Origin: Candidatus Versatilivorator sp.
Lineage (GTDB): Bacteria > Acidobacteriota > Terriglobia > Versatilivoradales > Versatilivoraceae
Direction of reading: 5' to 3'
DNA length: 64,000 nucleotides
NCBI GenBank assembly: GCA_965207735.1
Contig: OZ242296.1
Span: 4,000,001-4,064,000, forward strand
Part shown: piece after piece, positions 3,727 through 24,200 of the stretch
How positions within the stretch are numbered: position 1 is the first letter of the stretch
Layout: every line of letters begins with the position of its first letter
The notes under the pieces: model-generated
Seen by the model: only the letters and a program-made list of their open reading frames with translations
What the model was told of the DNA's origin: nothing
The model's database searches: none
Program-made: the position numbers and the translations under genes

Positions 3727-6700
3727 CTAGTGCACTGCCGGCGTCAAGATCCGGATCAGGTGATTCCCCGACTCAGCGATGAAGAGGTTGCCCGCTGCGT
3801 CCACCGCCACGCCTTCGGGGTAGTTTAGCCGGGCCGCGGTCGCCGGGCCGCCGTCCCCGCTGAACCCCCTCGTTCCCGTGCCCGCCACGGTGGTGATGAC
3901 CCCCGCGGAGTCCACCTTGAGGATCCGATTGTTGGCCGAATCGGCGATGAAGAGGTTGCCGGCGCCGTCCACCGCCACGTCATCGGGGAAGGCCAGCCGA
4001 GCCGCGGTCGCCGGGCCGCCGTCCCCGCTGAACCCCCCACGTCCCCCGCCCGCCACGGTGGTGATGACTCCTGCCGTGTCCACCTTGCGGATCCGGTGGT
4101 TTCCCGAATCGGCGATGAAGAGGTTGCCGGCACCGTCCACCGCCACGCCTCCGGGTCCGTACAGCCGAGCCGCGGTCGCCGGGCCGCCGTCCCCGCTGAC
4201 CCCAAGCCTTCCCGTGCCCGCCACGGTGGTGATGACCCCCGCTGTGTCCACCTTGAGGATCCGGTGGTTGTTGGAATCGGCGATAAAGAGGTTGCCGGCA
4301 CTGTCCGCCGCCACGCCTCTGGGTCTGTTCAGCCGAGCATCGGCCGCCGGGCCACCGTCCCCGCTGACCCCAAACCTTCCCGTGCCCGCCACGGTGGTGA
4401 TGACTCCTGTCGTGTCCACCTTGAGGATCCGGTGGTTGTTGGAATCGGCGATAAAGAGGTTGCCGGCACTGTCCGCCGCCACGCCTCTGGGGTCGTCTAG
4501 CCGGGCCGCCGTCGCCGGGCCGCCGTCCCCGCTGACCCCCCCCGTTCCCGTGCCCGCCACGGTGGTGATGACCCCCGCCGTGTCCACCTTGCGGATCCGG
4601 CGGTTGCCCCGATCGGCGATGAAGAGGTTGCCGGCGCCGTCCACCGCCACGCCACCGAGGCCGGCCAGCCGGGCTGCGGTCGCTGGGCCGCCGTCCCCGC
4701 TGACCCCAAGCCTTCCCGTGCCCGCCACGGTGGTGATGACCCCCGCCGTGTCCACCTTGCGGATCCGGCGGTTGCCCCCATCAACGATGAAGAGGTTGCC
4801 GGCGCCGTCCACCGCCACGTCAGAGGGTCTGCCCAGCCGGGCCGTCGTCGCCGGGCCGCCGTCCCCGCTGAACCCCCTCTCTCCCGTGCCCGCAACGGTG
4901 GTGATGACCCCCGCCGTGTCCACCTTGCGGATCCGGTGGTTGTCCCGATCGGTGATGAAGAGGTTGCCGGCGCCGTCCACCGCCACACCATGGGGGAAGG
5001 TCAGCCGAGCCGCGGTCGCCGGGCCGCCGTCCCCGCTGAACCCAAGCCCTCCCGTGCCCGCCACGGTGGTGATGACCCCTGCTGTGTCCACCTTGCGGAT
5101 CCGCTGGTTAAGCAAATCGGCGATGAAGAGGTTGCCGGCACCGTCCACCGCCACGCCAGCGGGGAAGGCCAGCCGGGCCGCGGTCGCCGGGCCGCCGTCC
5201 CCCCCCCTGAACCCCCTCTCTCCCGTGCCCGCCACGGTGGTGATGACCCCCGCTGTGTCCACCTTGCGGATCCGGTGGTTGTACTGATCGGCGATGAACA
5301 GATTGCCGGCGCCGTCCACCGCCACGCCGGTGGGGTGTGCTAACCGAGCCGCGGTCGCCGGGCCGCCGTCCCCGCTGAACCCGGTCTCTCCCGTGCCCGC
5401 CACGGTGGTGATGACCCCCGCTGTGTCCACCTTGCGAATCCGGTCGTTGCCCCGATCGGCGATGAACAGGTTGCCGGCGCCGTCCACCGCCACGCCTTCG
5501 GGGACCCTTAGCCAAGCCGCGGTCGCGGGGCTGTTATCCCCATCATCCCGAGTACCGGCGAAGGTGTCGATTATCCAGCCAGTGGGAGTTTGCCCGCCGC
5601 CGGCCGTGACCACTACCCGCCGGCCCCTGGAACAGTTGTTATTGGTCCGGCTCTCCCCGCTGACCGCGTCCACGCAGGCGCCGTAGTAGTAGGTCCCCCC
5701 ACTCGACGGGGCCGTCAACCGGATCGACTCTTCCGTCAGGCCCGATGGGGCAAGGGCGCTCACTGCGTCCGTCCCCACCGAGGTATCAGCGCTCGTTATG
5801 GTCGCGTCCGTCGAACGGTAATAGCTCAGCGTCGTGGCCGGGGAGGCTCCCTCCCCGACGTTGCGCACTCCCGCCGCCAGCGAGAACGACCCTCCCGGGG
5901 GAGTGCCCGAAGGGTTCGTAAAGGCGGTGATCGAGTAGACGGTCAGGTCCGGATCGCCGCCGGAACGAGTGTCTGGGGGGGGGACAGTTTCCGCCGGCGG
6001 CAAGGAGGAGAATACCGGATCGGCTTCGAAGTTCAGCGACAGGGTCACGATGGGCTCGGTGGAGGTGATCTCGACCGATCCGTTAAAGCCGTTGAGCGCA
6101 AACAGGGGCGCCATGTTTTGCGCACCATGCCCGTGGGGCGACAGGCTTCTATCGACGCTGGCCAGCACCTGCCCTGCCGCGTCCTTGGCCGTAAAGGTAA
6201 TTTGGGCCGCCGCGTCGGATGGGTTGGCGTAGGCCACTCCGGTCCCAAACCGACCTTCTCCCTGTTCGGCAAAGGTGACAAAGCGGGTTGCCGGAAGTCC
6301 CGCCGCGTTGACTCCGGCTTCTCCCGTGGGCACTCCCCCTTCAAACCGGCGAAACAGCAGGCTGGCCTTTACCGGCCCCGAGCAGCTGGCCCGCGCCCAG
6401 CCGGGCGCCAGCGGTGCGCTCAGCTCCACGTCGGTCTCCTCATGAACCGACCCTCCGGGCGGCAGAACGTCGGTTCGCCTGTCCACCGTTCCCAGTCCTG
6501 CAAATGACACCATCAGCGGACTCCCCTGATCGGAAAGGAAATCCGTCTGGCAGCTCACCTCCTCAGTGGAGTAGTTGATATAGGTGAGGGTGGTTTGCCA
6601 ACCCGCTCCCACGGCAAGGTGGGGGAAGTAATAGGTAGTCGTTCCCTCGGCGGCAGCATCCAGTTCCCCAGGCGGCAAGGAGGAGAACACCGGATCGACT

Positions 6701-7794
6701 TCGAAATTCAGCGACAGGGTGACGATGGGCTCGGTGGAGGTGATTTCCAGCGATCCGCTAAACCGGCTGAGACCGAATAGTCCCGCCATATTGTGCGCAC
6801 CATGCCCGTTGGGCAACAGGTTCCGCTCGACGCTGGCCAGCGTCCGCCCCGCCGAGTCCTTGGCCGTAAAGGTGACGAGGGCCGCCGTGTCGGATGGGTT
6901 GGCGTAGGCCACTCCGGTCCCCAACCGGCCTTCTCCCTGCTCGGCAAAGGTGACGAAGCGGGTGGCTGGAACGGTCGCCGCATTGACTCCGCCTTCCGCC
7001 ACGGGCGCCCCTTGGCTGTTGTGGCGGCGAAACAGCAGGCTGGCCTTCACCGGCCCCGAACAGGTGGCCCGCGCCCAGCCGGGCGCCAGCGGTGCGCTCA
7101 GCTCCACGTTGGTCTCCTCATGAACCGACCCTCCGGGCGGCAGAACGTCGGTCCGGCTGTCCACCGTTCCCCGATCCGCAAACGAGACCATCAGCGGACT
7201 TCCCTGATCGGAAAGGAAATCCGTCTGGCAGCTCACCTCCTCGGAGGAGTAGTTGATATAGGTGAGGGTGGTTTGCCATCCCGCTCCCACGGCAAGGTGA
7301 GGGAAGTAATAGGTCTGCTCTTCCGTCTGTGGGGGCGGCTGAACCGCACTCGATTCAACCAACTCGAAGCTGCCCCTACAGACCACCAGACCGAACACCG
7401 CCGCTGTGAACGTGCCCCTCGTCTGCGAGCTGAAGGTCAAATCAGACACAAAGGGAATCGGAAGGTCATCAACCGTTGTCGTGAGGGTTCCCGTGTTCGT
7501 GCCGGTTTCCTCGTATTCGTAGTCGCCCTCCACATCCACAGTTTGCGTTCTGCCACCTGATTCAATGACTGCCTTTGTAGCCAATCGGCCTGGTCCGATG
7601 AAGCTGAAGGGATCTATTCCATCGCCTTCGTCGCAATCCGGGGCGTCAAATTGCAAGGTCCACCCCGTGAACCGTTGCTCGAATTCCTCCTGGCTCTGTG
7701 GCGCAAGCTGGGCAACCGCCATGCCCGGACAGACTACGGTCAACAGCGCGGTGAAGCTCCAAAGGATTCCCTTGTTTAAAGACCGTAAAGACAC
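3727..7794 (-). CDS. Exported NHL-repeat beta-propeller protein, copy 1 (signal peptide, N-terminal Cys-pair domain, 2 tandem Acidobacteria-type domains, CARDB-like domain, 11 NHL repeats)
   Basis: GAGGAG + 7 nt + GTG at 7794, then a hydrophobic signal peptide (...GMAVAQ). Repeats P.GVAVDGAGNLFIAD..N.RIRKVDTAGVITTVAGTG. Confidence 0.9.
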   Translation of the reverse strand: MSLRSLNKGILWSFTALLTVVCPGMAVAQLAPQSQEEFEQRFTGWTLQFDAPDCDEGDGIDPFSFIGPGRLATKAVIESGGRTQTVDVEGDYEYEETGTNTGTLTTTVDDLPIPFVSDLTFSSQTRGTFTAAVFGLVVCRGSFELVESSAVQPPPQTEEQTYYFPHLAVGAGWQTTLTYINYSSEEVSCQTDFLSDQGSPLMVSFADRGTVDSRTDVLPPGGSVHEETNVELSAPLAPGWARATCSGPVKASLLFRRHNSQGAPVAEGGVNAATVPATRFVTFAEQGEGRLGTGVAYANPSDTAALVTFTAKDSAGRTLASVERNLLPNGHGAHNMAGLFGLSRFSGSLEITSTEPIVTLSLNFEVDPVFSSLPPGELDAAAEGTTTYYFPHLAVGAGWQTTLTYINYSTEEVSCQTDFLSDQGSPLMVSFAGLGTVDRRTDVLPPGGSVHEETDVELSAPLAPGWARASCSGPVKASLLFRRFEGGVPTGEAGVNAAGLPATRFVTFAEQGEGRFGTGVAYANPSDAAAQITFTAKDAAGQVLASVDRSLSPHGHGAQNMAPLFALNGFNGSVEITSTEPIVTLSLNFEADPVFSSLPPAETVPPPDTRSGGDPDLTVYSITAFTNPSGTPPGGSFSLAAGVRNVGEGASPATTLSYYRSTDATITSADTSVGTDAVSALAPSGLTEESIRLTAPSSGGTYYYGACVDAVSGESRTNNNCSRGRRVVVTAGGGQTPTGWIIDTFAGTRDDGDNSPATAAWLRVPEGVAVDGAGNLFIADRGNDRIRKVDTAGVITTVAGTGETGFSGDGGPATAARLAHPTGVAVDGAGNLFIADQYNHRIRKVDTAGVITTVAGTGERGFRGGDGGPATAARLAFPAGVAVDGAGNLFIADLLNQRIRKVDTAGVITTVAGTGGLGFSGDGGPATAARLTFPHGVAVDGAGNLFITDRDNHRIRKVDTAGVITTVAGTGERGFSGDGGPATTARLGRPSDVAVDGAGNLFIVDGGNRRIRKVDTAGVITTVAGTGRLGVSGDGGPATAARLAGLGGVAVDGAGNLFIADRGNRRIRKVDTAGVITTVAGTGTGGVSGDGGPATAARLDDPRGVAADSAGNLFIADSNNHRILKVDTTGVITTVAGTGRFGVSGDGGPAADARLNRPRGVAADSAGNLFIADSNNHRILKVDTAGVITTVAGTGRLGVSGDGGPATAARLYGPGGVAVDGAGNLFIADSGNHRIRKVDTAGVITTVAGGGRGGFSGDGGPATAARLAFPDDVAVDGAGNLFIADSANNRILKVDSAGVITTVAGTGTRGFSGDGGPATAARLNYPEGVAVDAAGNLFIAESGNHLIRILTPAVH
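3730..5580 (-). repeat. Tandem ~168-bp NHL repeat array (11 units)
   Basis: Counted in the ORF translation; ~56-aa period. Confidence 0.9.
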
Positions 7795-8161
7795 TGTTTT
7801 TCTCCTCGCTTTTTGACCCTCGGATCCATCCAGGTGTCCCGTCCCAAGGACCGCCGTGACGCACCGCACGCTACAACATGACAAAGGGGGGCTGTGTTGG
7901 GTTGGTCATTCTCCACTCTTGCTTCAGGTGACAGGATCGAAGAGGTTGCTTAGCTTTCAGACTTCTGTACTCTATAAAACCAATGTGAATCCAAGGCGAC
8001 CAGATGAGTTGTTAGGTGAATAAAATACGAATTCGTTTCCCATTCCTGCTAGAATCGACTCGGTTGAGCCTTGGAGGTACTCGCAACCGGCTCTTCCACA
8101 GAGCCGTGACCGGCCGACAACCAACTGGTCTTACTCCGAGGCCCAACGAAAGGGGGATGAC

Positions 8162-8470
8162 TTGAAGAGGCCCAACGAATTGAAACGAGGGAACGAGAGG
8201 CTTCGGGAACGCATCTCCAAACTGAGCGCGGCCAGCCTGCGAATCAGCGCCAGCCTCGATCTCGACACTGTCCTGAGCGAGGTGGTGGAAAGCGCCCGCG
8301 CGCTGACCGGCGCCAGCTACGGTGGCATCGTGACCGGCGGTGAGTCAGGACGAGCCTTCGACTTCGTCTCTTCCGGACTGACCACCGAAGAGCACCGCCA
8401 GTTGCTGGAGTGGGCCGAGGGGCCGCGGCTGTGCCAACACGTCCGCGACCGATCGGGACACCGGCCGTGA
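8162..8470 (+). pseudogene. 5' fragment (~96 codons, GAF start) of the hybrid sensor kinase at 25876-28233
   Basis: Near-identical to the kinase N-terminus up to CQHVRD, then runs into the junction repeat and stops. Confidence 0.9.
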
Positions 8471-8509: not shown

Positions 8510-9397
8510 TCACTGCACTGCCGGCGTCAAGATCCGGATCAGGTGATTGCCCGAATCAGCGATGAAGAGGTTGCCCGCTCCGTCCACCGCCACGCCTTCG
8601 GGGCTCCTTAGCCAGGCCGCGGTCGCGGGGCTGTTGTCCCCAACATCCCGAGTACCGGCGAAGGTGTCGATCCTCCAGCCGGTGGGAGTTTGCCCGCCGC
8701 CGGCCCTGACCGTTACCCGCCGGCCCCTGGAACAGTTGTTATTGGTCCGGCTCTCCCCGCTGACCGCGTCCACGCAGGCGCCGTAGTAGTAGGTCCCCCC
8801 ACTCGCCGGGGCCGTCAACCGGATCGACTCTTCCGTCAGGCCCGATGGGGCAAGGGTGCCCAGCGCGTCCGTCCCCACCGAGGTATCAGCGCTCGTTATG
8901 GTCGCGTCCGTCGAACGGTAATAGCGCAGCGTCGTGGCCGGGGAGGCTCCCTCCCCGACGTTGCGCACTCCCGCCGCCAGCGAGAACGACCCTCCCGGGG
9001 GAGTGCCGGAAGGGTTCGTAAAGGCGGTGAACGAGTAGACGGTCAGGTCCGGATCGCCGCCGGAACGAGTGTCTGGGGGGGGACAGTTTCCGCCGGCGGC
9101 AAGGAGGAGAATACCGGATCGGCTTCGAAGTTCAGCGACAGGGTCACGATGGGCTCGGTGGAGGTAATCTCGACCGATCCGTTAAAGCCGCTGAGTGCAA
9201 ACAGAGGCGCCATGTTTTGTGCACCATGCCCGTCGGGCAACAGGTTCCGCTCGACGCTGGCCAGCGTCCGGCCCGTAGCGTCCTTGGCCGAAAAGGTGAC
9301 GAGGGCCGCCGTGTCGGATGGGTTGGCATAGGCTACTCCAGTCCCCAACTGACCTTCTCCCTGCTCGGCAAAGGTGACGAAGCGAGTGGCCGGAAGT
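8510..9397 (-). pseudogene. Truncated, frameshifted third NHL gene copy with the array collapsed to one repeat
   Basis: No 5' end. G8 instead of G9 at 9075-9082 shifts the frame. First-repeat N-half is joined directly to last-repeat C-half (WLRSPEG...IADSGNHLIRILTPAVQ). Confidence 0.9.
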
Positions 9398-9568
9398 GTC
9401 GCCCACCGCCGAACCGCCCAGGGCGTACACCAGCGGCGTGTCGCGCTTGGGGTCATCCGGTTCGGCCAAGCGGCCGTTGTGTCGAAACGTGATCATCCGG
9501 TGAAACCGCCTTCCTCGGCGACGGTAGCGACGTGGTACACTCAATGTCCAACCTTGGGGAGAAGGCGG

Positions 9569-11302
9569 ATGATATTCAAGACCAGCCTAGCGCGCGGCGT
9601 GGCATTGGTGATTGCGGCCGGATTCGCGTTGAGCGCGACCGCGGGAACCCTGACGGGACCGGTGACCGAGGGAGAACGGGGCGGTCCGTACGGCGCCGTG
9701 GACGTTGCCGACCGGGGCTACCAGACCGAGGAGTATTTTCTCGCCGGCAGCGCCACGGCCTACGAACTGGCCGAAGGGGAGCACACGCCCGACGGCCGCT
9801 GGAATACGCGCCCGGCAGCGGACAAGGCAGACTTCAAGACCCGCCTGTTGGTGGTTCGCCCGGAGGATCCCGACGCCTTCAACGGCACCGTCATCGTCTT
9901 GTGGCTGAACGTCTCCGCCGGCTTCGAAGTGGGCTTGGCGGTCGGCGAGGCACTGCGCGGCTACGCCTGGGTCGGGGTCTCGGCACAGAAGGTCGGCATC
10001 GACGGGTTCCCGCAGGATCCCCAAGGTCTCAAGGCCTGGGATGCGAAGCGCTACGGTTCCCTCGTTCATCCGGGCGACGCCTATTCCTACGACATCTTCA
10101 CCCAGGTCGCCCGCGCCGTGGGTCCGGAACGCGACACGTCCGATCTTGATCCCATGGGCGGCCTCGAGGTCGAGCGGATGATCGCCGTGGGCCCCTCGCA
10201 GTCCGCCGCACGCCTGCGAACGTACATCAACGGCGTACACCAACACACGGGCGTGTTCGACGGCTACATTCCGTTCGTCGACTTCGGCCGCGGGGTGCCG
10301 TTCACGGCGGATAGCGCCGGTCAGCTCTGGGGTGGCTGGTCGTCGATCCGTTCCGACCTCGACGTCCCGGTAATCGTCGTGAACTCGGAGACCGAGGTGA
10401 CCAGCTACTACGGGGTGCGGGAGGACGACTCCGACCGCTTCCGCCTCTGGGAGATCGCGGGCACCTCGCACGTGTCGGTGCCGCGACCCGAGGAAGCGGA
10501 CACCGGCTTCAACTGGCTGTCCTACCGCCCCGTGTACGACGCATCGATCCGGCATCTGCATCGCTGGATCACGGATGGTGTCGAACCGCCGCGGATGCCG
10601 CGCGTCGAAGTCGTACCCGGTACCGGTCAGACCGGCGCGGCGGCGCGACCCCAGGTCGTGCGCGACGATCACGGCAACGCGGTGGGTGGAATCCGTCTGC
10701 CGGACGTCGAGGTGCCGACGGCTTCGCACAGCGGTTTCGGGGTACAGAAGCCGGGGACGCAGTTCGGCTTCATCTTCGGCGTGGCAGCGGACTTTGATGG
10801 CGAGAAGCTCGCCAGCCTGTATCCGGACAGCGGGCACTATCTCAAGGCTTGGCGGGCGGCACTCGACCGGGCCGTGGAACAAGGCATCGTGCTGCCCGAA
10901 GACGCCCCCGCCATGGCGGACGCAGCTGCGGCTTGGGCCGCGCGCCTGGATGTCGAACAGGGCGCCGACGAGATGGCGGAGCGCGTGACCCAGGTTCGGG
11001 AGCGGCTGATGCTCACCGACGAACAGGTCGAGAAGATCGGGCCGATCCTGCGCAAGGGGATCGAGGCGCAGGCGGAACTGTTCGCCGAGCAGGGATTCGC
11101 GCGGGGCGGGGCGAGGAGCCGCCAGGGCGGTCTCCCGAACCTGCGGCAGATGCGCAAGCTCCGGAGGGAGATAGATGCGATCCGGGAGTCGACGCTCCGG
11201 GAACTCGGCGAGGTGCTGGACGAGAAGCAGCTCGCGGAGTACAGGGAGATCCAGAAGGAACGCCAGGCGGAACTGCGCAAGCGGATGAGAGAGCGCCGCT
11301 AG
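9569..11302 (+). CDS. Exported alpha/beta-hydrolase-domain protein with C-terminal helical LTxxQ (Spy/CpxP-like) extension
   Basis: Signal peptide (…FALSATAG); motifs TRLLVVRP.DP..FNGTV, GPSQSA, WEIAGTSH, GGIRLPDV; tail LTDEQ...LDEKQ. Confidence 0.75.
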   Translation: MIFKTSLARGVALVIAAGFALSATAGTLTGPVTEGERGGPYGAVDVADRGYQTEEYFLAGSATAYELAEGEHTPDGRWNTRPAADKADFKTRLLVVRPEDPDAFNGTVIVLWLNVSAGFEVGLAVGEALRGYAWVGVSAQKVGIDGFPQDPQGLKAWDAKRYGSLVHPGDAYSYDIFTQVARAVGPERDTSDLDPMGGLEVERMIAVGPSQSAARLRTYINGVHQHTGVFDGYIPFVDFGRGVPFTADSAGQLWGGWSSIRSDLDVPVIVVNSETEVTSYYGVREDDSDRFRLWEIAGTSHVSVPRPEEADTGFNWLSYRPVYDASIRHLHRWITDGVEPPRMPRVEVVPGTGQTGAAARPQVVRDDHGNAVGGIRLPDVEVPTASHSGFGVQKPGTQFGFIFGVAADFDGEKLASLYPDSGHYLKAWRAALDRAVEQGIVLPEDAPAMADAAAAWAARLDVEQGADEMAERVTQVRERLMLTDEQVEKIGPILRKGIEAQAELFAEQGFARGGARSRQGGLPNLRQMRKLRREIDAIRESTLRELGEVLDEKQLAEYREIQKERQAELRKRMRERR

Positions 11303-11477
11303 GCGGGGCGCGGCGGTGGATGCGCGGAGCCCGACGGGGGGGGCTGAGGACCTTGGACGGCGGCCTGGGACGTGGGATCTGTGATCGAGCTTATAGGAGA
11401 ACCTGCAACCCTAAGATATTGCCCCTTGGCGAGCTCGCGGAGGCCTGCGCGGCCCCAAGATGTTGGGGTGCGGCTAA

Positions 11478-11506
11478 AGTTGACATAATGAAGGATTATC
11501 GGAAGT
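11478..11506 (-). other. dif-like Xer recombination site
   Basis: Minus strand ACTTCCGATAA-tccttca-TTATGTCAACT resembles XerC/XerD arms (B. subtilis dif ACTTCCTAGAA-N6-TTATGTAAACT); spacer here is 7 bp. Confidence 0.6.
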
Positions 11507-11547
11507 CAGTTCCTGTGGGAGCATAGCCGAAACTATAGGACGAGGCG

Positions 11548-11889
11548 CTAGCTCTCACGATCCGGGAAGCAGCCCAGGGCAACCATCAGTGCGTCGTCGA
11601 GAGACTTGAGTTTGGTGGCATCGAGGCTCCCTACGAACCGAGTCAACTGCGACTTCCGCAGGCTGACAAGCTCGTCGCAGTGCACGCTGCAGTCGTGTCG
11701 AAGTCCTTCGTTCAATCCGACATCGACTTGTGTTGCCAGCCCGTGACGCTTCGAGTACACTGGCGCACAGATAACCGTCGAGAAGTGAGAGTCGATCACT
11801 GCCTGCCGGCTGACTACGACGAACACGCGAAAACGCTTCGGGTCGCGCGCGTGGGGTCGCTCGACCCGGTAGAGCTCCCCGCGCGTCAC
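11548..11889 (-). CDS. mazF: PemK/MazF family toxin
   Basis: RGELY...KR.RVFVVVS...VICAPV...CDELVSL.KS.L pattern; overlaps the antitoxin stop. Confidence 0.85.
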
Positions 11890-12116
11890 GTGACTACCTG
11901 ATATGCCAGGACATCGACCGCTTCTTCGTTGAGTTCATCGGCGTGCTCATTGATGATATTGCGGTCGCGCTTGTCGATCCTTACCCGTTCTCTCGCTGAG
12001 AAGCTTTGACGAAGCAGCCGCTCAATCACCTGGGATCTGCTTTCTCCTTCTCGGGCAGCCTCGTCAACGGCTGTGACCACCTCTTGCTCAAGTGTGATAG
12101 ATGTTTTCAGCTTCAT
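11886..12116 (-). CDS. Ribbon-helix-helix antitoxin partner of MazF
   Basis: MKLKTSITL...SRSQVIE..LR; directly upstream of and overlapping the toxin. Confidence 0.8.
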
Positions 12117-13713: not shown

Positions 13714-13778
13714 GACTGTTCCTCTTTTCTCTGGAGCGCGGCTGTATTACGCGGGTACGCGTAGCATATTATACGCGT

Positions 13779-14871: not shown

Positions 14872-14879
14872 TTCCTTGC

Positions 14880-15158: not shown

Positions 15159-15172
15159 AACGGGGGCGGGAC

Positions 15173-15526: not shown

Positions 15527-18500
15527 CTACTCCCGGGCAGGCAAGTAGGCCCCGTCGCCGCTGCGCTCTCCTGGCCTGCCACCGTCATTGACCACCCCGT
15601 AGGCCAGAAACGGGTTCTCCCCCGACACCCTCTCGATCCGGATATACCCCTGCCGCGTCTCCGAAGAGGCTCTGCCCAGGATCCCATTGATCTGATGCCA
15701 GCCCCGGACCGGGACCTCCTTGGTCACCACCGTCTCCACCAGCATCCCCGTCTCCCCGTCGTAGATCTCCAGATGAAAGACGCTCTCACTTTCGTCCACT
15801 TCTCCCGTGTTGACCAGCGCCAGGTTGGAGCGGTCCTGGCTGTTCTGCTGCATCCCGTCCACCCAGGCAACCCGGGTGAAGGCCTCGCCTTCCGGCACCG
15901 CGTTGTAGAAGACGCTGTATTGTCCCCCGCCTCCCTTCGAGCCCGTCCTGGCTCCTACCACGATTCCGCTCAGGTCTCCCTCTTCGGCCGTGACGAACAC
16001 CGGTCCCGCCAAGGTCCGCCTGCCCGTCCCCAGTCCCGCCACCTCCTCACCACGCAACGCCTCCACCACCTCCGGTACGATCTCCTGCTGGCCGGCTTCC
16101 AGCTCCATGCTGAACACCGCCGTCCGGTCGTCCGTATCGATCCCCTCGGCTACAAACTGGAAATTCAGTCTCCTCGGCTCCTGGGAGAAGTTCGTCACCG
16201 TCAACTCGCTCCTGAACTCACTCGTCTCCACGATCACCGGCAGCGTCTGCCCCCTCTTCCCCGCCAGTGAACTCGCCGTCACCGGAAAGATGAACGACCC
16301 GTCCGAGTTCACCTGGTCGTTGATCACCCCGTAGGCGTAGAAGGGTGAGGTTCCCTCCACCCGCTCCACCCTCACGTAGCCGCTGGCATTGCCGCCCACT
16401 GCATTCAGCACTGCGTTGTGCTGGTGAAATCCTCCTGGCTCCAACCTTACCTCGTCCAGCTCCCGGGCAGTCCCATCCCCCGCCTCTCCTGAGTAGACCG
16501 TGGTCTTGAGGGTGATCGCTCCCTCCCCCGCAGTCCCCATGTTCTGAAAGGCTACGTTGGAGCGGTCCTGGCTGTTCTGCCTGAGCCCGCACAGGTAGAC
16601 CGGCTCGTCAAACCCCTCCTCCTCGGCTATCCCCAGGTAGGCCAGCCCCGCCCGTCCGTCAGGCACTACCGTCGTGGTCCGCACCACTGCACCCACCTCC
16701 GAACCCAGCTTGACCTCCACCCGCAGTGTCCCCACCCGGTTCCCCGTCTCGGGAATCGGTACCCCCAAACCCCTCAGATAGGTGAGGGCGTCGGTCTCGA
16801 CGATTTGTCTGCCGGCTGCCAGTCTGTCGGAAGCCGTCCCGCTCCCTCCTCCCGCATCGGCCGTGTAGAGGTAGTCCACCCTCGCTTCCTTCTCCCCACG
16901 GTTGGTCAGCGTCAGCTCCGAGGTGAAGAAGGACTGTTTCCGGCCTGCAGAGGAGAGGATCACCGGAACGAACAGCGACCCCGTCGTCAACCGGAAGCTC
17001 CCCTCGGCCAGGTCCGGGTCCCCGCAGTCATAGACGAACCCGCCCACTCCCGACTCGGTGAAGCTCAATCGGAGCTCGCAGGAAGCCCCGTCATCGTAGT
17101 CCAGCCTCACCGTCCCCATCCCGGGCCCTGTCCTCTCATAGGCGTAGCTGCCCAATCGCGAAGTGGTGCTCTCCGATCGGGATTCGGCGCTCTCTGACCG
17201 AATCGCCGCCTGGGCTCCCACCCTCTCGATCTGCTCGAACCGGTTGCCTTCTCCAAACCGCAGCTCAATGCGTCTGTCGGTCCCCGCCTCTCCGCCCAAC
17301 CGCAAGGTCAAACGCTCATCCTCCAGGTCCTCCTCCGTGAAGTCCGAGGGATCGTCCGAGTCGGGCTCCTCCCCTCCCGTCCTTCCTTCCCCCGGCTGCG
17401 ACCACTCACCCCTCCCCTCTTCGTTCATGGCCCTCACCTCCACCCGGTAGAGCCTCTCCTCCTCCAGGCCCGTCAGCGTCAACCTCAGTCCCGTCCCCTC
17501 GTGCCCCCCGTCCCTGTAGCCTTCCTCTCCCTCCTCCCGGTAGCGCACCTCATAGCCGGTGATCTCAGGCCCCCGGTTCTCAGGCTCGGACCAGCTCACT
17601 GTCAGGCTGTCCGTGCCCTCAGCGGTCACCTCCGGAGCCGCCACCGCCCCCGGCGGCTCCTCCTCGTCACTCACCCGCACCCGTATGGCCCTCTGCCTCC
17701 TCCGTTCCCTCTCCCCCTCCCCGCTCCTCGCCTCCACCACCACCACGTATTCGTTGTCTCCCGCTCCGCTTGCCGGGTCGGTGCCAGCCGCATCGGCAGG
17801 CCTCTCATAGTCCGGCGCCTCCGTGAAGCTCAGCTCTCCCGTCTGCTCAACTACCCTAAACAGCGCCCCGTCCGCTCCCCCCGCAATCCCGTAGCCGGCA
17901 ACCTCGTCCCCCTCGTCGGAGTCCACCGCTTCCAGCCGCACTACCTTCGTCTGGTTCTCCACCACCTCGAACTGCCCCGGGCTGGTGATCTCCGGCAGCC
18001 GGTTCAGCTCGCTCAGCCGGAAGCTCCCCTGTCCCTGCAACGCGCCCCCGCAGCGGTAGCTGTAGCTGCCTGCTCCCACTCCGCTGAAGCTCATCCGGAG
18101 TTGGCACGACTCCCCCCCGTCGTAGTCCAGGCTCAGCTCTCCCGTCGTCCGGCTGGTGTAGCGGTACCGGTAGCTCCCCATGCGGGTCGCCGTCACTTCC
18201 CCTGCTGTGTCCAGCTCGCTCTCCTCAAACCGCAGCCCCCCTCCAAACCTCACCTTCAGACTCCGCCGGCTTCCTCCAAACGGCGTCCACTCCAATCCGG
18301 CCTCTCCACCCTCCAGGTCCTCCGCCCGGAAGTTCGACCGATAGGCCGGGTCCAGCGGCATCACCGCCTCCACCGCCTCCGTCTCCCGCCCGTTGCCGAT
18401 CTGGTTGACCCCACGCAGCTCCAAGGCATAGACCGTCCCGTTGAGAAGCCCCATGAGGGTGTAGCCGGAGGCGTTGACCTCCCCGGGGGCGCTGTCCGGG

Positions 18501-18631
18501 ATGGGTGTCCACTCGCCGAACTCGCCCAGGCCTTCTTTGAGGCGGTACTCGTAGCGCAGGATCTCGGAGCCCCCGTCGCTTTCCGGCGGACTCCACGCCA
18601 ACCGCATCGCCCCGTCCCCCGGCATGGCCAT
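15527..18631 (-). CDS. C-terminal half of adhesin copy 2 (FN3, Cys-pair domain, cadherin, FN3, Cys-pair domain, Acidobacteria-type C-terminal domains), split from the N-half by a frameshift
   Basis: FN3 motifs (LAWSPPESDGGS..YEYR; LTVSWSEPENRGPEITGYEVRY); cadherin-like PDYERP.D...DNEY.V.V; LFVPVILSSAG..FTSELTLTN. Its ATG overlaps the TGA of the upstream ORF. Confidence 0.8.
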   Translation of the reverse strand: MAMPGDGAMRLAWSPPESDGGSEILRYEYRLKEGLGEFGEWTPIPDSAPGEVNASGYTLMGLLNGTVYALELRGVNQIGNGRETEAVEAVMPLDPAYRSNFRAEDLEGGEAGLEWTPFGGSRRSLKVRFGGGLRFEESELDTAGEVTATRMGSYRYRYTSRTTGELSLDYDGGESCQLRMSFSGVGAGSYSYRCGGALQGQGSFRLSELNRLPEITSPGQFEVVENQTKVVRLEAVDSDEGDEVAGYGIAGGADGALFRVVEQTGELSFTEAPDYERPADAAGTDPASGAGDNEYVVVVEARSGEGERERRRQRAIRVRVSDEEEPPGAVAAPEVTAEGTDSLTVSWSEPENRGPEITGYEVRYREEGEEGYRDGGHEGTGLRLTLTGLEEERLYRVEVRAMNEEGRGEWSQPGEGRTGGEEPDSDDPSDFTEEDLEDERLTLRLGGEAGTDRRIELRFGEGNRFEQIERVGAQAAIRSESAESRSESTTSRLGSYAYERTGPGMGTVRLDYDDGASCELRLSFTESGVGGFVYDCGDPDLAEGSFRLTTGSLFVPVILSSAGRKQSFFTSELTLTNRGEKEARVDYLYTADAGGGSGTASDRLAAGRQIVETDALTYLRGLGVPIPETGNRVGTLRVEVKLGSEVGAVVRTTTVVPDGRAGLAYLGIAEEEGFDEPVYLCGLRQNSQDRSNVAFQNMGTAGEGAITLKTTVYSGEAGDGTARELDEVRLEPGGFHQHNAVLNAVGGNASGYVRVERVEGTSPFYAYGVINDQVNSDGSFIFPVTASSLAGKRGQTLPVIVETSEFRSELTVTNFSQEPRRLNFQFVAEGIDTDDRTAVFSMELEAGQQEIVPEVVEALRGEEVAGLGTGRRTLAGPVFVTAEEGDLSGIVVGARTGSKGGGGQYSVFYNAVPEGEAFTRVAWVDGMQQNSQDRSNLALVNTGEVDESESVFHLEIYDGETGMLVETVVTKEVPVRGWHQINGILGRASSETRQGYIRIERVSGENPFLAYGVVNDGGRPGERSGDGAYLPARE

Positions 18632-21171
18632 CAGGCCCCCCGGCGCCTGCGGAGGAAACAGCAGGCCACCACCTCCTCCGCCGCCGCCACATTAGAAGGC
18701 AGCGTCGCGCCCAGCGCCACCGTGAACGTCTCGTCGTCCGTGTCCGCGTCCTGCGCCGTCGTGATCGTGCCCGTGCCCATCGTCGAGCCGCTGCTGATCG
18801 TGATGCTGGTCAGCGCCCCGAAGTCGCCCTCCTCCGCCGTCCCCGCCGTCAGCGTCAGAGGGATATCGATGTTGCTCGAAAGCGCCGCCGACAGCGCCGC
18901 CGTCACCGTCACCGACGAGCCCTCATCCACCGGGTTCGGAGCGGCTGAGAGCGTGAGAGTAATCGGTGTGACTCTCACTTGGCGGAAATAGTCGTCGGAG
19001 ACCGCTGCATGGGTCAGCACGGCCGCGGTATTGCTCGAATCGCCCTTGAACGTGATGGTTCCGCCGTTGAGGGAGATCGCGTTCGCAGGAATCGAGATGC
19101 CGTTGGTGTCCGAGTCCGCTGCCACGGTGTATGCGAAGACTGCCCTCAAGCCCCCTCGGGTGAGCCGCTGGAATCGGGCCTGCCTGGTGTTGGCGCCGAT
19201 GGTCAGTCCGAGTTGCGGCGTGCCGCTCACGCTCACCGCCCGGCTGAAGAGGGCGATGGCAATGATCGTCTCGCCCCTGTCGTAGGCGGCGCCGTCCTCC
19301 GGCCTGTTCACGAAGCCGACTCCCGTCACCTCCGGAGTCACGACGGCGGCGGCGCCGTTCACCTTGCGGGTCGAGCCGCCGGCAACCGCGCCGTGGGTGA
19401 GCGTGGGGGCGGCCGAGTCGCACCTGCGGGTGATGGTTCCGCCGTTGAGCGACAGGGCGTCGGCCGGGATGTCGACCCCGTCGGCGTCGGTGTCGGATGG
19501 CTGCACGATGTAAGCGAAGAGGACGTAGTAGGCGAAGGAAGGGTGGACGTACACGAAGTCGGCCTGCCTGGTGTTGGCGCCGACGGTCAGCGCGAGTTGC
19601 GGCGTGCCGCTCACCTCGACGGGGTCTTCGAAAATAGCCCACATATAGATCGGCTCGCCCAGGGAATAGGTTGCGCCATCGTCCGGCATGTCGGCGGCGA
19701 ACGCGGCGGTGGCCAATTCGTTGGGGGAGGCCATGGAGCCGTCGACCTTGTAGTCGGCGTAGGCGGACCGGGCGGCATGGGTGATGGTGGCATGGAGGGC
19801 CGGAACGTCCCGGCGGACGATGCTGCCGCCGTTCAGAGAAATCGCGTTCGCAGGGAACGAGATGCCGTCGGTGTCCGAGTCCGCCGCCATCACGTCGTAA
19901 TAGAAAAACATAGTAGTCGCTTCGGCGGAGAGGGCCTGGAAGCTGGCTTGCCGCATGACGCCGCCGACGTCGAGTTGCACCGTCGGGGAGCCGGTCACCA
20001 CCACCGGGTACCTGAAGGAGACACTCACAGTCGCGGCGTCGCACCTTTTAAGGACGCTGCCGGGCGGTGGGTTGTTTACATTGAGGGCGGGAGCACCGGC
20101 CTGCAGAGCGAGGACGGTGCTGGCATCCACTTTGTGGTTCGCACTGTCGGCCACCTCAGCGTGAGTCAGGGACGCCGAGGTGCCGGTGTCCACATCGTGG
20201 GTGATCGTCCCGCCGTTGAGCTCGAGCGCGTTCGCAGAGATCGAGATGCCGTCGGTGTCCGAGTCCGAGGCCTGCACCGTGTAGGAGAAGAGCATAAACG
20301 GTTGAGCGGCTAAACTCGTCACGAGGGATGAAAAGTTCGCGTACCGGGTTTGGCTGCCGACGGTCAGGGCCAAGCGCGGCCGGCCGGTCACGGCGATGGT
20401 CCGGCTGAAGTCCACCCTCACTTCGACGCTCTCATACTGTATGTAGGTTCCGTCGCCGCTCTCGGGCAAACCACTGAATGAAACCTGCAGAATCTCCGGC
20501 TGGGGCGACGTCGAGCCGTCGACCTTGAAGTTGGCGCCGTCAGCGAGTGCAGCGTGCGTCAGCGCGGCGTTCACCGACGGGTCGGCCTGGGCCGTAATGG
20601 AGCCGCCGTTGAGATCGAGCGCGTTGGCCGCGATGCTGTAGCCGTCCGTGTCGCTGTCGCTTGCCTGCACGGTATAGGAGAAAATGGCACCCGTGCGCTG
20701 CGACTCCAATTGATCGAAGACGGCGTAGCGGGTGTCGGCGCCGATGGTCAACGCCATGCGCGGCTGTCCCCGCACGCTCACCGTCTGGTCGAATTCGACG
20801 ATCAGAAAGATCCGGTCGCCCAGATAGTACGTATCGCCGGTGCCGAACTGCGGAAGGAAGCTGCTGCGGACGATTTTGGTGATCGCGGGCGCCGAGACTT
20901 GCGCCGCGGCGGGGAGGGCGGCGAGCAGGAACAGCGCGCCGGCTAGAAGCGCACCGGCGCGGCGAACGGGCCGAGCGCGCCCAGCAGCAGCGCCAGAGCT
21001 GGGAGGAGACGGAGGGAGCCGCCGTGAGACCGCAGGAAACCCGTGGAAGGCGCCGGGCGCGGGCGCCTCACGACGCGCCCCCTCGGCCAAGAATGCAGTG
21101 TCCGGGAGTGGTGGGCATGTCAAGTCCTTTTTTGATTTATTTGGAGCCGTGTCGGCACCGGGTTCCCGCAT
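18631..21171 (-). CDS. N-terminal half of adhesin copy 2 (signal peptide, 5 Ig-like repeats, Calx-beta-like), frameshifted by a 112-bp deletion at the poly-Gly linker
   Basis: Lacks positions 867-978 of copy 1 and ends in out-of-frame AAAEEVVACCFLRRRRGA*. Confidence 0.8.
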   Translation of the reverse strand: MREPGADTAPNKSKKDLTCPPLPDTAFLAEGARREAPAPGAFHGFPAVSRRLPPSPPSSGAAAGRARPVRRAGALLAGALFLLAALPAAAQVSAPAITKIVRSSFLPQFGTGDTYYLGDRIFLIVEFDQTVSVRGQPRMALTIGADTRYAVFDQLESQRTGAIFSYTVQASDSDTDGYSIAANALDLNGGSITAQADPSVNAALTHAALADGANFKVDGSTSPQPEILQVSFSGLPESGDGTYIQYESVEVRVDFSRTIAVTGRPRLALTVGSQTRYANFSSLVTSLAAQPFMLFSYTVQASDSDTDGISISANALELNGGTITHDVDTGTSASLTHAEVADSANHKVDASTVLALQAGAPALNVNNPPPGSVLKRCDAATVSVSFRYPVVVTGSPTVQLDVGGVMRQASFQALSAEATTMFFYYDVMAADSDTDGISFPANAISLNGGSIVRRDVPALHATITHAARSAYADYKVDGSMASPNELATAAFAADMPDDGATYSLGEPIYMWAIFEDPVEVSGTPQLALTVGANTRQADFVYVHPSFAYYVLFAYIVQPSDTDADGVDIPADALSLNGGTITRRCDSAAPTLTHGAVAGGSTRKVNGAAAVVTPEVTGVGFVNRPEDGAAYDRGETIIAIALFSRAVSVSGTPQLGLTIGANTRQARFQRLTRGGLRAVFAYTVAADSDTNGISIPANAISLNGGTITFKGDSSNTAAVLTHAAVSDDYFRQVRVTPITLTLSAAPNPVDEGSSVTVTAALSAALSSNIDIPLTLTAGTAEEGDFGALTSITISSGSTMGTGTITTAQDADTDDETFTVALGATLPSNVAAAEEVVACCFLRRRRGA

Positions 21172-21283
21172 GATGGCCATCCTCCTCAGTAAACGGCGGG
21201 GGCTGTGCGAACACATTAGCGACCGATCGGGACACCGGCCGTGAGACTGGCAGTTTTCAAGACCACTGAAAGAGTAGGTCCAG

Positions 21284-24200
21284 CTAGTGCACTGCCGGCG
21301 TCAAGATCCGGATCAGGTGATTGCCCGAATCAGCGATGAAGAGGTTGCCCGCACCGCCCACCGCCACGCCAACGGGTCGGTCAAGTCGGGCTGCGGTCGC
21401 TGGGCCGCCGTCCCCGCTGAACCCACTCGTTCCCGTGCCCGCCACGGTGGTGATCACCCCCGAGGTGTCCACCTTGCGGATCTGGTTGTTGCCCCAATCG
21501 GCGATGAAGAGGTTGCCGGCGCCGTCCACCGCCACGCCTCTGGGGAAGGCCAGCCGAGCCGCGGCCGCCGGGCCACCGTCCCCGCTGAACCCAAACCTTC
21601 CCGTGCCCGCCACGGTGGTGATGACCCCCGCCGTGTCCACCTTGCGGATCCGCTGGTTGCTCGTATCGGCGATGAAGAGGTTGCCCGCACCGTCCACCGC
21701 CACGCCTTCGGGAACGGCCAGCCCGGCCGCCGGCGCCGGGCCGCCGTCCCCGCTGAACCCCCTCTCTCCCGTGCCCGCAACGGTAGTGATGACCCCCGCC
21801 ATGTCCACCTTGCGGATCCGCTGGTTGCTCGTATCGGCGATGAAGAGGTTACCGGCGCCGTCCACCGCCACGCCTCCGGGGAAGGCCAGCCGAGCCGCCG
21901 TCGCCGGGCCGCCGTCCCCGCTGAACCCGTACCCTCCCGTGCCCGCCACGGTGGTGATCACCCCCGAGGTGTCCACCTTGCGGATCCGCTGGTTGCTCGT
22001 ATCGGCGATGAAGAGGTTGCCCGCACCGTCCACCGCCACGTCAGAGGGGCTGCGCAGCCGGGCCGCCGGCGCCGGGCCGCCGGCGCCGCTGAACCCCCTC
22101 TCTCCCGTGCCCGCAACGGTGGTGATGACCCCCGCCGTGTCCACCTTGCGGATCCGACCGGCGCCCCAATCGGCGATAAACAGGTTGCCGGCGCCGTCCA
22201 CCGTCACGTCAGAGGGGCTGTCTAGCCGGGCCTTGGTCGCCGGACCGCCGTCGCCGCGCTCTCCCGCGCCCGCGACGGTGGTGATCACCCCCGAGGTGTC
22301 CACCTTGCGGATCCGACGGTTGCCCGAATCGGCGATGAAGAGGTTGCCCGCACCGTCCACCGCCACGTCAGAGGGCCGGTCTAGATAGGCATCGGCCGCC
22401 GGGCCGCCATCCCCGCTGAACCCAAACCTTCCCGTGCCCGCCACGGTAGTGATGACCCCTGCCGAGTCCACCTTGCGGATCTGCTGGTTGCCCCAATCGG
22501 CGATGAAGAGGTTGCCCGCACCGTCCACCGTCACGTCAGAGGGCCGGTCTAGATAGGCATCGGCCGCCGGGCCACCGTCCCCGCTACCCCCCCCCATTCC
22601 CGTGCCCGCAACGGTGGTGATGACCCCCGCTGTGTCCACCCTGCGGATCCGGTAGTTGTGGGAATCGGCGATGAAGAGGTTGCCCGCGCCGTCCACCGCC
22701 ACGCCTTCGGGGAAGGCCAGCCGAGCCGCGGCCGCCGGGCCACCGTCCCCGCTGAACCCAAACCTTCCCGTGCCCGCAACGGTGGTGATGACCCCCGCCG
22801 TGTCCACCTTGCGGATCCGGTAGTTGTCGGAATCGGCGATAAAGAGGTTGCCGGCGCCGTCCACCGCCACGCCTCTGGGCAAGGCCAGCCGAGCCAAGGT
22901 CGCCGGGCCGCCGTCCCCGCTGCCCCTCCCCGTTCCCGTGCCCGCCACGGTGGTGATGACCCCCGCCGTGTCCACCTTGCGGATCCGGTAGTTGTCGGAA
23001 TCGGCGATAAAGAGGTTGCCGGCGCCGTCCACCGCCACGCCTCTGGGCAAGGCCAGCCGAGCCAAGGTCGCCGGGCCGCCGTCCCCGCTGAACCCCCTCT
23101 CTCCCGTGCCCGCCACGGTGGTGATGACTCCTGCCGTGTCCACCTTCTGGATCCGCTGGTTGAGCCAATCGGCGATGAAGAGGTTGCCGGCACCGTCCAC
23201 CGCCACGCCTTCGGGGCCCCTTAGCCAAGCCGCGGTCGCGGGGCTGTTATCCCCAACATCCCGAGTACCGGCGAACGTGTCGATTCTCCAGCCGCTGGCG
23301 GCTTCCGCGCCGCCGGCCGTGACCACTACCCGCCGGCCCCTGGAACAGTTGTTGGCGGTCCGGCTCTCCCCGCTGACCGCGTCCACGCAGGCGCCGTAGT
23401 AGTAGGTTCCCGCACTCGCCGGGGCCGTCAACCGGATCGACTCTTCCGTCAGGCCCGATGGGGCAAGGGCGCCCAGCGCGTCCGTCCCCACCGAGGTATC
23501 GCCGCTCGTTATGGTCGCGTCCGTCGAACGGTAGTAGCGCAGCGTCGTGGCCGGGGAGGCCCCCTCCCCGACGTTGCGCACTCCCGCCGCCAGCGAGAAC
23601 GACCCTCCCGGAGGAGTGCCGGAAGGGTTCGTAAAGACGGTGAACGAGTAGACGGTCAGGTCCGGATCGCCGCCGGAACGAGTGTCTGGGGGGGTGACAG
23701 TTTCCGCCGGCGGCAAGGAGGAGAATACCGGATCGGCTTCGAAGTTCAGCGACAGGGTCACGATGGGCTCGGTGGAGGTAATCTCGACCGATCCGTTAAA
23801 GCCGCTGAGCGCAAACAGGGGTGCCATGTTTTGCGCACCATGCCCGTTGGGCGACAGGCTTCTATCGACGCTGGCCAGCGCCTGCCCTGCCGAGTCCTTG
23901 GCCGTAAAGGTAATTTGGGCCGCCGTGTCGGATGGGTTGGCATAGGCCAATCCGGTCCCAAACCGACCTTCTCCCTGCTCGGCAAAGGTGACGAAGCGGG
24001 TTGCCGGAAGTCCCGCCGCGTTGACTCCGGCTTCTCCCGTGGGCACTCCCCCTTCAAACCGGCGAAACAGCAGGCTGGCCTTTACCGGCCCCGAGCAGCT
24101 GGCCCGCGCCCAGCCGGGCGCCAGCGGTGCGCTCAGCTCCACATCGGTCTCCTCATGAACCGACCCTCCGGGCGGCAGAACGTCGGTCCGGCTCTCCACC

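Follow-up and report, generated by a model that had tools for sequence, protein, structure and literature searches.

How can two neighbouring paralogs stay nearly identical over most of their length and yet have no repeat unit in common? A stretch of 64,000 nucleotides from Candidatus Versatilivorator sp. (contig OZ242296.1; here "the window") raises this question, as it carries two genes, A and B, that end in arrays of NHL blades, together with a degenerate third copy, C. A previous sequence-only reading proposed a combinatorial binder repertoire, generated by recombination among 168-bp units with paralogous or silent copies as donors. The features that bear on this proposal are the following.

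1..3527, minus strand: large adhesin-like gene downstream of gene A, with fn3, continuing past the window edge
974..8450: duplicated segment, copy 1 (5' part of the adhesin-like gene, gene A, upstream region, kinase fragment)
3727-7794, minus strand: gene A, 1355 aa from the GTG at 7794
3727..5580, minus strand: array A, closing strand plus 11 blades of 168 bp each (one of 171 bp)
about 5952-5632, minus strand: CARDB domain of gene A
7314-6664 and 6636-5989, minus strand: two unnamed domains of ~217 aa in gene A
6846..7495, minus strand: 650-bp tract of gene A, identical to 24559-25208 in gene B
8510-9403, minus strand: copy C, a 5'-truncated, frameshifted remnant of an NHL gene
15527..21216, minus strand: adhesin-like gene downstream of gene B, in two ORFs (18631-21216 and 15527-18631)
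18681..26164: duplicated segment, copy 2
21284-25507, minus strand: gene B, 1407 aa, architecture as gene A, with a 12-blade array
21284..23293, minus strand: array B, closing strand plus 12 blades (23230 to 21284)
25876..28233, plus strand: divergent GAF-PAS-histidine kinase-receiver-TransReg hybrid gene

Gene A encodes, in this order, a predicted signal peptide (assigned by eye from the sequence), a ~130-aa domain without assignment, the two unnamed domains, whose Atlas neighbours are all unnamed and for which DUF5719 is a lead, a CARDB domain and a C-terminal 11-blade NHL array, the blades of which run from 5517 to 3727. Teneurin-type NHL models (PF25021 / PF01436) gave 304 and 333 bits against a curated cut-off of 27.1. 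Pfam searches of A and B returned no NACHT or NB-ARC, no YD/RHS and no domain recognisable as an anchor or for export, no NCBIfam model scored above its cut-off, and the protein stops right after the last blade. Judged from the leader, both proteins are probably exported through a Sec-type signal. A lipoprotein reading was rejected, since the leader cysteine has no consensus lipobox and is replaced by tyrosine in the homologues P0135, P0137 and P0240. The protein of gene B is identical to P0046.

The surroundings of the two genes were duplicated with them. The adhesin-like gene near A is 99.2% identical to 18681-21205 over 2525 bp; its B-side counterpart, with fn3, cadherin and a conserved C-terminal domain, is split at what is a poly-Gly linker in the A-side copy. 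The first ~290 bp of the kinase hybrid recur at 8162-8450, and at the junction around 8450 the kinase gene shares microhomology with the intergenic sequence that follows the NHL stop. Over the 2277 bp 5' of the arrays, A and B differ at 89 positions (96.1% identity), and outside the array their proteins differ at 46 of 759 residues; the 650-bp identical tract is likely a recent conversion between the paralogs. The extent first assigned to the system (3727..23293) takes in gene A, copy C and array B, but the 5' half of gene B lies beyond 23293. Copy C retains a single blade, with the start of a first blade and the end of a last one.

In keeping with the first description of the locus, the 11 and 12 blades of A and B include no common one: among 21 full blades, the closest A-B pair is 15 nt apart and the mean is 26. 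Blade columns with an entropy of at least 1.5 bits are 4, 5 and 7, 22, 23 and 25, and 44 and 45, which confirms the three variable patches proposed earlier and adds a weaker fourth position at column 56. The two scaffold motifs singled out as barely changing are indeed almost invariant in both protein and DNA. Mean pairwise blade identity in A/B is 0.81/0.80 for protein and 0.86/0.84 for DNA. Variation at these columns is a feature of the whole family (Spearman 0.71 in comparison with 340 blades from 33 other arrays); the peculiarity of A and B lies in the homogenised remainder of the blade. The recurrence of patch variants in both paralogs holds in part: at the DNA level the ERGF allele occurs in five blades spread over both genes, whereas A and B have no patch-1 or patch-2 allele in common. 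With 22 distinct patch-1 and 19 distinct patch-2 DNA alleles in 24 blades, most patch alleles are unique; the idea of a repertoire combined from a closed set of patches is not supported, and much of the diversity would come from new point mutation under selection.

Between the patches, the scaffold DNA of A and B is homogenised by recombination or conversion among the 168-bp units. Scaffold distance within A/B averages 0.08 (maximum 0.138), while the closest blade of any other array lies at 0.152, and among 361 blades the nearest neighbour of every A/B blade (21/21) is found in A or B. Positional correspondence is lost: A-B distance is 0.148 in register and 0.152 off register, as against 0.154 and 0.311 in a control paralog pair of the same genome. 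With a PHI-type test, p was 0.0002 for the 56 informative sites as well as for the 34 that lie outside the patches, and 0.009-0.014 when restricted to 12 synonymous sites. Stretches of identity extend over 144 bp (B1/2-B2/3), 80 bp (A7-A8) and 71 bp (A4-B7, patch included). Exchange among units, as originally suspected, is thus supported, the site and PHI-type tests being custom code applied to 21 short units. Blade order is taken as assembled: in the runs that cover the locus best, the longest listed read-contig piece wholly on array A measures 135 bp, and read-contig joints there have sides of 22-41 bases, as repeats would produce. No RNA run was listed as containing the locus.

Positive selection acts strongly on some eight codons of each blade. 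Using top- and bottom-face columns picked from the 33 other arrays rather than from A/B, we obtained a dN/dS of 5.87 (bootstrap 3.8-10.4) for the top-face codons of A/B, 0.56 for the variable bottom-face codons (columns 13, 14, 32 and 33), and top-face values of 0.74-3.23 in the other arrays. Top-face pN occupies a similar range in all 35 arrays (0.38-0.73), so the high A/B ratio reflects low dS. The comparison of M2a with M1a gave an LRT of 86.9 and an omega of 6.2 with sites 5, 7, 22, 23, 25, 45 and 56, whereas 63 recombining null simulations reached at most 15.3. The excess of non-synonymous change that the diversification idea called for is therefore present. In the array of a Bryobacterales MAG (L095) the LRT was 66.7, with sites 4, 7, 22 and 45.

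The predicted structure of array B (pLDDT 91.8) has four strands per blade and matches six-bladed NHL domains over about 350 columns; the match to NHLRC2, likewise on a predicted structure, spans 350 columns with an rmsd of 2.1 and a TM-score of 0.83 by target. Unit 6 of array B has only 159 bp and likely marks the junction between two predicted six-bladed propellers. This short unit is also present in P0127, P0135 and L095 and is absent from array A, whose model has a low-confidence break after blade 6 and which we read as 6+5 blades; both proteins are predicted to be double beta-propellers. In the model, the selected columns sit either in the loops b-c and d-a or where strand a begins. Since these loops define the top face of a propeller (PMC4015489), the selected codons would make up the predicted top face, to which ligands bind, and the proposal that the patches share one face agrees with the model.

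Arrays also vary among assemblies, another expectation that was borne out. P0127 shares 92-93% identity with A/B up to the array, but none of its 12 blades is the same as theirs (best 76-96% identity). P0147, P0241 and P0242 are identical at 675/675 and 673/675 positions before the array, yet their arrays are told apart by swapped patches in blades 6-7 and by a blade count of 12 or 11. Blade numbers are 11, 12 and 1 at the locus and 12, 10, 12, 12, 11, 4, 3 and 1 in eight homologues, the last two of which (3 and 1 blades) change reading frame after the array, which may be an error. The arrays of P0135 and P0240 are identical, as are those of P0207 and P0247, so turnover is not constant. For the other assemblies, the comparison used protein sequences only, and misassembly of repeats is possible. 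At the DNA level, none of the 13 other genomes in the genus contained a close homologue of the array (76% at best), and 34 metagenome loci included no close relative. The named homologues come from MAGs of Terriglobia, Bryobacterales and Ca. Versatilivoraceae, and for the CARDB part also from Poribacteria and Entotheonella, taxa that we take to be sponge-associated. By extension from these relatives, the bacterium likely lives in a sponge; a run labelled sponge metagenome, with a share of 0.17, did not enter into this assignment.

Taken together, we consider it very probable that the arrays evolve by blade recombination combined with positive selection on the patches. Ordinary homologous recombination (unequal crossover and short conversion) would drive blade exchange without a dedicated enzyme, point mutation would create new patch alleles and selection would retain them. 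Strong selection on a predicted ligand-binding face that recombines by blades makes a fast-evolving binder of host, probably sponge, molecules likely. We put this mechanism together with a binding role against some changing external partner at roughly 0.7. Given the mechanism, the odds that the partner belongs to the host are about even; secretion would proceed via the Sec-type signal, and the target would come from the host, in line with what other eukaryote-like proteins of sponge symbionts act on.

Programmed diversification, whether silent cassettes are assembled in a VLR-like way or a DGR-type system acts in trans by mutagenic retrohoming, is the least probable alternative and is largely refuted for this assembly. 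A silent third copy does exist and the genome holds 19 RVT_1 matches, none of them inside the 64-kb window, as the sequence-only reading had correctly noted. Fourteen of these are near-identical proteins of 456-459 aa that, by their motifs, presumably resemble group II intron RTs, and those of 317 and 320 aa presumably retron RTs. However, copy C is a one-blade remnant, no silent donor cassettes were found elsewhere in the genome, and matches of at least 40 bp outside the locus reach at most 85.7% identity, 19 of 20 lying in other NHL genes; the VLR-like or antigenic-variation picture was rejected accordingly. So was a diversity-generating retroelement: no template repeat with adenine-specific mismatches and no adenine-biased template/variable pair was found around the four RT loci scanned, a set apart from the 14 long RTs, and the four-fold degenerate adenine of column 43 is intact in 21/21 blades.

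The same genetics could instead serve escape, with a top face that is recognised by phages, host receptors or grazers and varies like an antigen. Nearly all blades are unique (A, B and P0127 together have 33 distinct six-residue signatures in 35 blades) and array turnover is complete from one close homologue to another, as escape would predict. Yet escape should strike any exposed face, whereas the bottom-face loops, although tolerant of variation, are homogenised and only the 46 residues mentioned above differ elsewhere; we regard escape as rather unlikely. Escape and binding roles can coexist. More doubtful still is a recent amplification from a single blade, followed by one-off re-differentiation or relaxed loop constraint and no continuing diversification. 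AT-ending codons fixed in 21/21 A/B blades would fit one recent ancestor, the variable columns vary family-wide, and PMC9218822 describes highly repetitive propellers that repeatedly arise from single blades with more non-synonymous than synonymous change. Relaxation, however, predicts an omega near 1 where about 6 is observed; the first blade, the last blade and short unit 6 retain their identity from homologue to homologue, whereas register is lost for the internal blades, and near-identical alleles are distinguished by patch swaps, so this reading is already weakened. Finally, old patch differences might persist without positive selection if gene conversion could not cross mismatched patches. 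Tracts are indeed short and mainly in the scaffold, and 5/6 A-B tracts of at least 55 bp end at or within the third patch. But synonymous divergence is lower beside the patches (0.09) than far away (0.21-0.25; few columns), patches do get copied (ERGF five times, FFPA five times in P0127), and column 5 of the first blade, within otherwise identical protein flanks, is V in A, G in B and S in C, which makes such a barrier very improbable.

In lamprey VLRs, silent-cassette antigenic variation and DGRs, too, the binding surface varies while the repeat scaffold beneath it stays fixed. Unlike these systems, A/B revealed no cassette library, template repeat or dedicated enzyme. By analogy, their closest counterpart is the WD40 arrays of the fungal het-e/HNWD family, closer than the VLRs. 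In the HNWD genes het-d, het-e as well as het-r, near-identical blades are exchanged within and between paralogs (PMC1805685; PMC2873952; PMC4986451), repeat number varies, pseudogene copies lie close by, and a few positively selected codons sit beside conserved codons in the top face's d-a loop and b-c turn. A/B likewise combine concerted evolution within and between loci, selected codons on a predicted face and repeat-number polymorphism. The criterion quoted for high internal conservation is an identity above 85% over 100 aa (PMC4986451); for A/B the figures at hand are the mean pairwise blade identities given above. They depart from the fungal proteins in being bacterial, in their 56-aa teneurin-type NHL blades, in probably being exported, and in lacking the NACHT/NB-ARC NTPase and effector (death effector included) of HNWD and of fungal or bacterial NLRs. 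The repeat pool comprises 24 units at one locus (A/B/C) versus 69 in ten genes, and the fungal arrays have an allorecognition phenotype whereas A/B are known here from sequence.

By sequence and fold, the best match to A/B are the bacterial teneurin-like proteins (Pfam TEN_NHL, E 2e-128, fold rank 1; PDB 9ifo/9pt5; PMC13018210). Both have a GDGGPA-type blade, but A/B lack the FN-plug/NHL/YD-shell superfold with its YD/RHS shell and toxin C-terminus and have two predicted propellers, not one. They share high blade identity, array-specific scaffold signatures and a distinct closing strand with the highly repetitive beta-propellers of Pereira and Lupas (PMC9218822), and go beyond them in that positive selection and exchange between paralogs were measured; the main text of that paper mentions neither NHL nor positive selection nor sponges. 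As excerpted, PMC13747020 reports a sponge-symbiont NHL protein that alters bacterial survival in sponge cells. A/B resemble such ELP9-type proteins, by description, in NHL repeats, a likely sponge-associated bacterium and fn3/cadherin neighbours; for ELP9 that excerpt reports phagocytosis effects, not repeat shuffling or positive selection. No study of positive selection or concerted evolution in bacterial NHL arrays was among the literature matches listed, in a search that left subscription papers outside.

Eukaryote-like repeat proteins of sponge symbionts have mostly just been tallied as Pfam domains. The present locus draws attention to one subfamily that is apparently engaged in an arms race, and to the particular residues concerned, which makes the question of the binding partner testable by blade and patch swaps. 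It extends the fungal recipe of concerted evolution plus selection to a bacterial, probably secreted NHL scaffold, and its naturally randomised, predicted six-fold propeller is a candidate binder scaffold. A more speculative and on balance unlikely extension is a quasi-adaptive repertoire of sponge-dwelling Acidobacteriota, in which blades would be exchanged so fast that cells of one symbiont population within one sponge differ in their propeller faces and host or phages select among them. If true, A/B would be a secreted bacterial equivalent of the fungal NLR allorecognition arrays, setting host specificity.

The genome, a single 5.26-Mb contig that contains the window, carries a duplicated segment with two paralogous genes, A and B, each encoding a C-terminal array of NHL blades:
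974-8450 and 18681-26164: the two copies of the segment containing A and B
3727-7794, minus strand: gene A, 1355 aa, 11-blade array
8510-9403, minus strand: copy C, lacking its 5' half, with a frameshift and one blade
21284-25507, minus strand: gene B, 1407 aa, 12-blade array

Both proteins start with a leader that by eye resembles a Sec signal peptide, so they would be exported. An unknown domain follows, then a pair of ~217-aa domains without a name, CARDB and finally the array, which matches TEN_NHL and NHL (Pfam). Blades measure 168 bp, except for A2 (171 bp), B6 (159 bp) and the last blades (108 bp). While the pre-array coding parts are 96.1% identical across 2277 bp, including a 650-bp identical tract, and the downstream adhesin-like genes 99.2% over 2525 bp, the arrays fall below these flanks at ~84%. 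In two runs from one sample, possibly the source of the genome, the duplicated-adhesin contig had 1.8-1.9x the depth of a single-copy contig (17.2 vs 9.46; 13.2 vs 6.84); as contig depth does not equal copy number, these values are compatible with a real duplication but do not establish it. In run X1, contig pieces on array A were short and five of the eight listed showed no difference; the blade order is as assembled. The adhesin-like gene downstream of B is split (18631-21216 / 15527-18631) at a poly-Gly linker of low complexity, possibly by slippage-based switching or an assembly error; the copy at 1-3527 has this linker unbroken. The insert between the segments (9374-15472) has lower GC, encodes an alpha/beta hydrolase, a PemK-type toxin-antitoxin pair, a DUF4041/T5orf172 protein, a ParA-like ATPase and an HTH protein, and has for the most part little or no cover in X3 and X7, runs from two other studies. 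In X3, at the place of window 3727-3730, the gene preceding the adhesin has a copy C stop region at its end, suggesting that C-type ends are alleles of one locus.

An HMM of the NHL unit matched 16 ORFs in this genome, A, B and C included, and had matches in all 31 genomes searched. We compared 35 arrays. Thirteen come from these 16 ORFs, with two weak matches and C excluded; the other 22 come from 20 fetched stretches, which are best matches rather than a random sample. Internal DNA identity was highest in A (0.86), with B tied second (0.84). Among 361 blades, the nearest scaffold neighbour of all 21 full A/B blades lay within A or B, and the largest scaffold distance among A/B blades (0.138) was smaller than the smallest to any other array (0.152). 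Blades of A and B were about as distant in register (0.148) as off register (0.152), whereas a control paralog pair of the same genome gave 0.154 vs 0.311 and five other pairs retained register to varying degrees; positional correspondence between A and B blades is thus lost despite 96-99% identical flanks. A PHI-type permutation test, in our own code and with a null that does not model clustered mutation, gave p=0.0002 both on all 56 informative sites and when restricted to the 34 non-patch sites; on 12 synonymous sites p was 0.009-0.014. Identical tracts reach 144 bp inside B, 80 bp inside A and 71 bp between A4 and B7. Copy C begins as a first blade and ends as a last blade, and may have formed by pop-out of internal blades.

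Within the 56-aa blade, A and B are hypervariable at columns 4, 5, 7, 22, 23, 25, 44 and 45, more weakly at 56. These columns also vary family-wide (rho 0.71), whereas the family-variable columns 13, 14, 32 and 33 are almost fixed in A/B. An AlphaFold2 model of array B (pLDDT 91.8, pTM 0.64) has four strands per blade and matches the fold of six-bladed NHL domains over ~350 columns; because this spans only about half of the model, the prediction is a pair of propellers, placed uncertainly relative to each other. The short unit 6 of B, which recurs in the homologues P0127, P0135 and L095 and is absent from A, likely marks the junction in this model. In the model of array A (mean pLDDT 88.6), confidence falls under 50 behind blade 6 (residues 355-361), and the array may be read as 6+5 blades. 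By model secondary structure, the b-c loop comprises columns 22-25 and the d-a loop columns 41-56 and 1-5; strand a starts at column 7, while 13 and 14 lie in the a-b and 32 and 33 in the c-d loop. In excerpts of PMC4015489, the b-c and d-a loops define the top surface of NHL propellers, which is the binding site in Brat, and the a-b and c-d loops the bottom. Assigned by loop topology, not coordinates, the hypervariable columns would therefore sit on the predicted top face, in line with the sequence-only expectation that the three patches share one face.

That expectation had extended to an excess of nonsynonymous change, which was borne out. With variable columns chosen, against circularity, from the other 33 arrays (340 blades), pN in A+B was 0.585 at nine top-face columns, 0.101 at four bottom-face columns and 0.022 in the core, with pS at 0.171, and dN/dS reached 5.87 on the top face (column bootstrap 3.8-10.4) vs 0.56 on the bottom. 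Top-face dN/dS was 7.3 for A and 5.2 for B alone, against 0.74-3.23 in the other 33 arrays. In our own implementation, M2a vs M1a gave an LRT of 86.9 (omega 6.2), with sites 5, 7, 22 and 45 (posterior 1.0) plus 23, 25 and 56 selected; 63 null simulations without positive selection, using 8, 14 or 56 independently shuffled blocks, yielded at most 15.3. Patch differences might persist through a conversion barrier alone, but we count against this because synonymous divergence is not elevated next to the patches. All arrays compared have a high top-face pN, so what sets A and B apart is the recent homogenisation of their synonymous sites.

As to the source of this diversity, 24 blades carry 22 distinct alleles at patch 1 and 19 at patch 2, and 20 blades carry 13 at patch 3, the only one with frequent recurrence. 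Since most alleles are unique, the repertoire is open-ended, arising by mutation and selection followed by shuffling. Hence, of the combinatorial repertoire proposed from sequence alone, blade recombination stands and assembly from a closed patch set does not. The proposed silent donors, akin to the assembly of lamprey receptors (VLR), are not supported, as a genome search found no donor library, and neither is a diversity-generating retroelement (DGR) for these arrays, as no template/variable pair was found around the four reverse-transcriptase loci scanned. The engine would be ordinary homologous recombination among the 24 tandem units of the two nearby paralogs. The genome holds two short reverse transcriptases (RTs) and a 1525-aa RT fusion (genome 3462422, 4583011, 4241346) as well as 14 near-identical RTs; we take the short ones to be retron-like, these and the fusion to be possible defence systems, and the 14 to be intron-type. 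Two DDE transposase genes (36455-37630 and 49381-50556) have equal length and identical Pfam scores.

The anticipated variation of arrays between assemblies was found among homologous protein records, here taken as assembled elsewhere (P0127-P0247). P0127 is 92-93% identical before the array, yet none of its 12 blades is identical to any A or B blade, and a single patch allele is present in five of them. P0147, P0241 and P0242 have identical or nearly identical pre-array parts, yet blades 6-7 show patch swaps between them and blade number varies (12 vs 11); P0207, P0245 and P0246 show comparable reshuffling, while P0135/P0240 and P0207/P0247 have identical arrays. X3 and X7 contain the adhesin gene at ~98.5-99% (39 differences/2687 and 25/2554), and pieces at least 99% identical on array A numbered 8/54 in X3, 0/51 in X7 and 40/84 in X1. 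The pattern of low pS and high omega recurred in two Bryobacterales arrays among 14 from 123 further loci, which overlap the first array set in part; one, L095, gave an LRT of 66.7 (sites 4, 7, 22, 45) and its own scaffold signature, in a site model without a recombination null. P0214 and P0226 share the N-terminal domains of A and B but carry another, highly repetitive array (~42 aa) that is propeller-like and also has variable patches; the same stalk may thus bear a second diversifying module.

The organism is likely an acidobacterium, because named homologues come from MAGs of Terriglobia, Bryobacterales and Ca. Versatilivoraceae; we assume a sponge habitat from the ecology of related MAG lineages. 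Around the arrays, the C-terminal domain of the adhesin-like neighbour (~484 aa, 15527-16980) occurs in 38 ORFs of the genome, many encoding large modular proteins (364-4859 aa); it had no Pfam or NCBIfam match and is a candidate export or anchoring domain. The tandem ~217-aa domain (5989-7314) occurs in seven ORFs and is common in related MAGs; it has no Pfam name and unnamed Atlas neighbours, a relation to DUF5719 being a lead. A GAF-PAS-kinase-receiver-TransReg hybrid (25876-28233) has nine copies in the genome, eight of them outside the window; several adjoin genes for large surface proteins (e.g. genome 286953, 328219, 951442, 2160000).

In A and B, a homogenised scaffold and a recombination signal coincide with positive selection at predicted top-face codons and array variation between assemblies. 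This molecular evolution is well supported; on function, we infer a binding role. Selection could come from phage or receptor escape, or the arrays could serve recognition between bacteria. We favour a host ligand, because a sponge symbiont NHL protein improves survival of bacteria in sponge cells (excerpts of PMC13747020) and the neighbours are fn3/cadherin proteins. We found no literature report of positive selection or concerted evolution in bacterial NHL arrays; the main text of PMC9218822 treats repetitive propellers without NHL, positive selection or sponge, though its supplements may list such propellers. A and B are neither a DGR nor a VLR-like system, nor, going by excerpts of PMC13018210, bacterial teneurin-like proteins. 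They resemble the fungal WD40 arrays (HNWD) of Podospora in exchange within and between loci and in repeat-number polymorphism, although, unlike HNWD, they are not NLRs. Another likeness is that selection in HNWD falls on four codons, which belong to its d-a loop and its b-c turn (excerpts of PMC1805685; PMC2873952; PMC4986451). A mode of evolution known from fungal HNWD is thus found here in bacterial NHL arrays.
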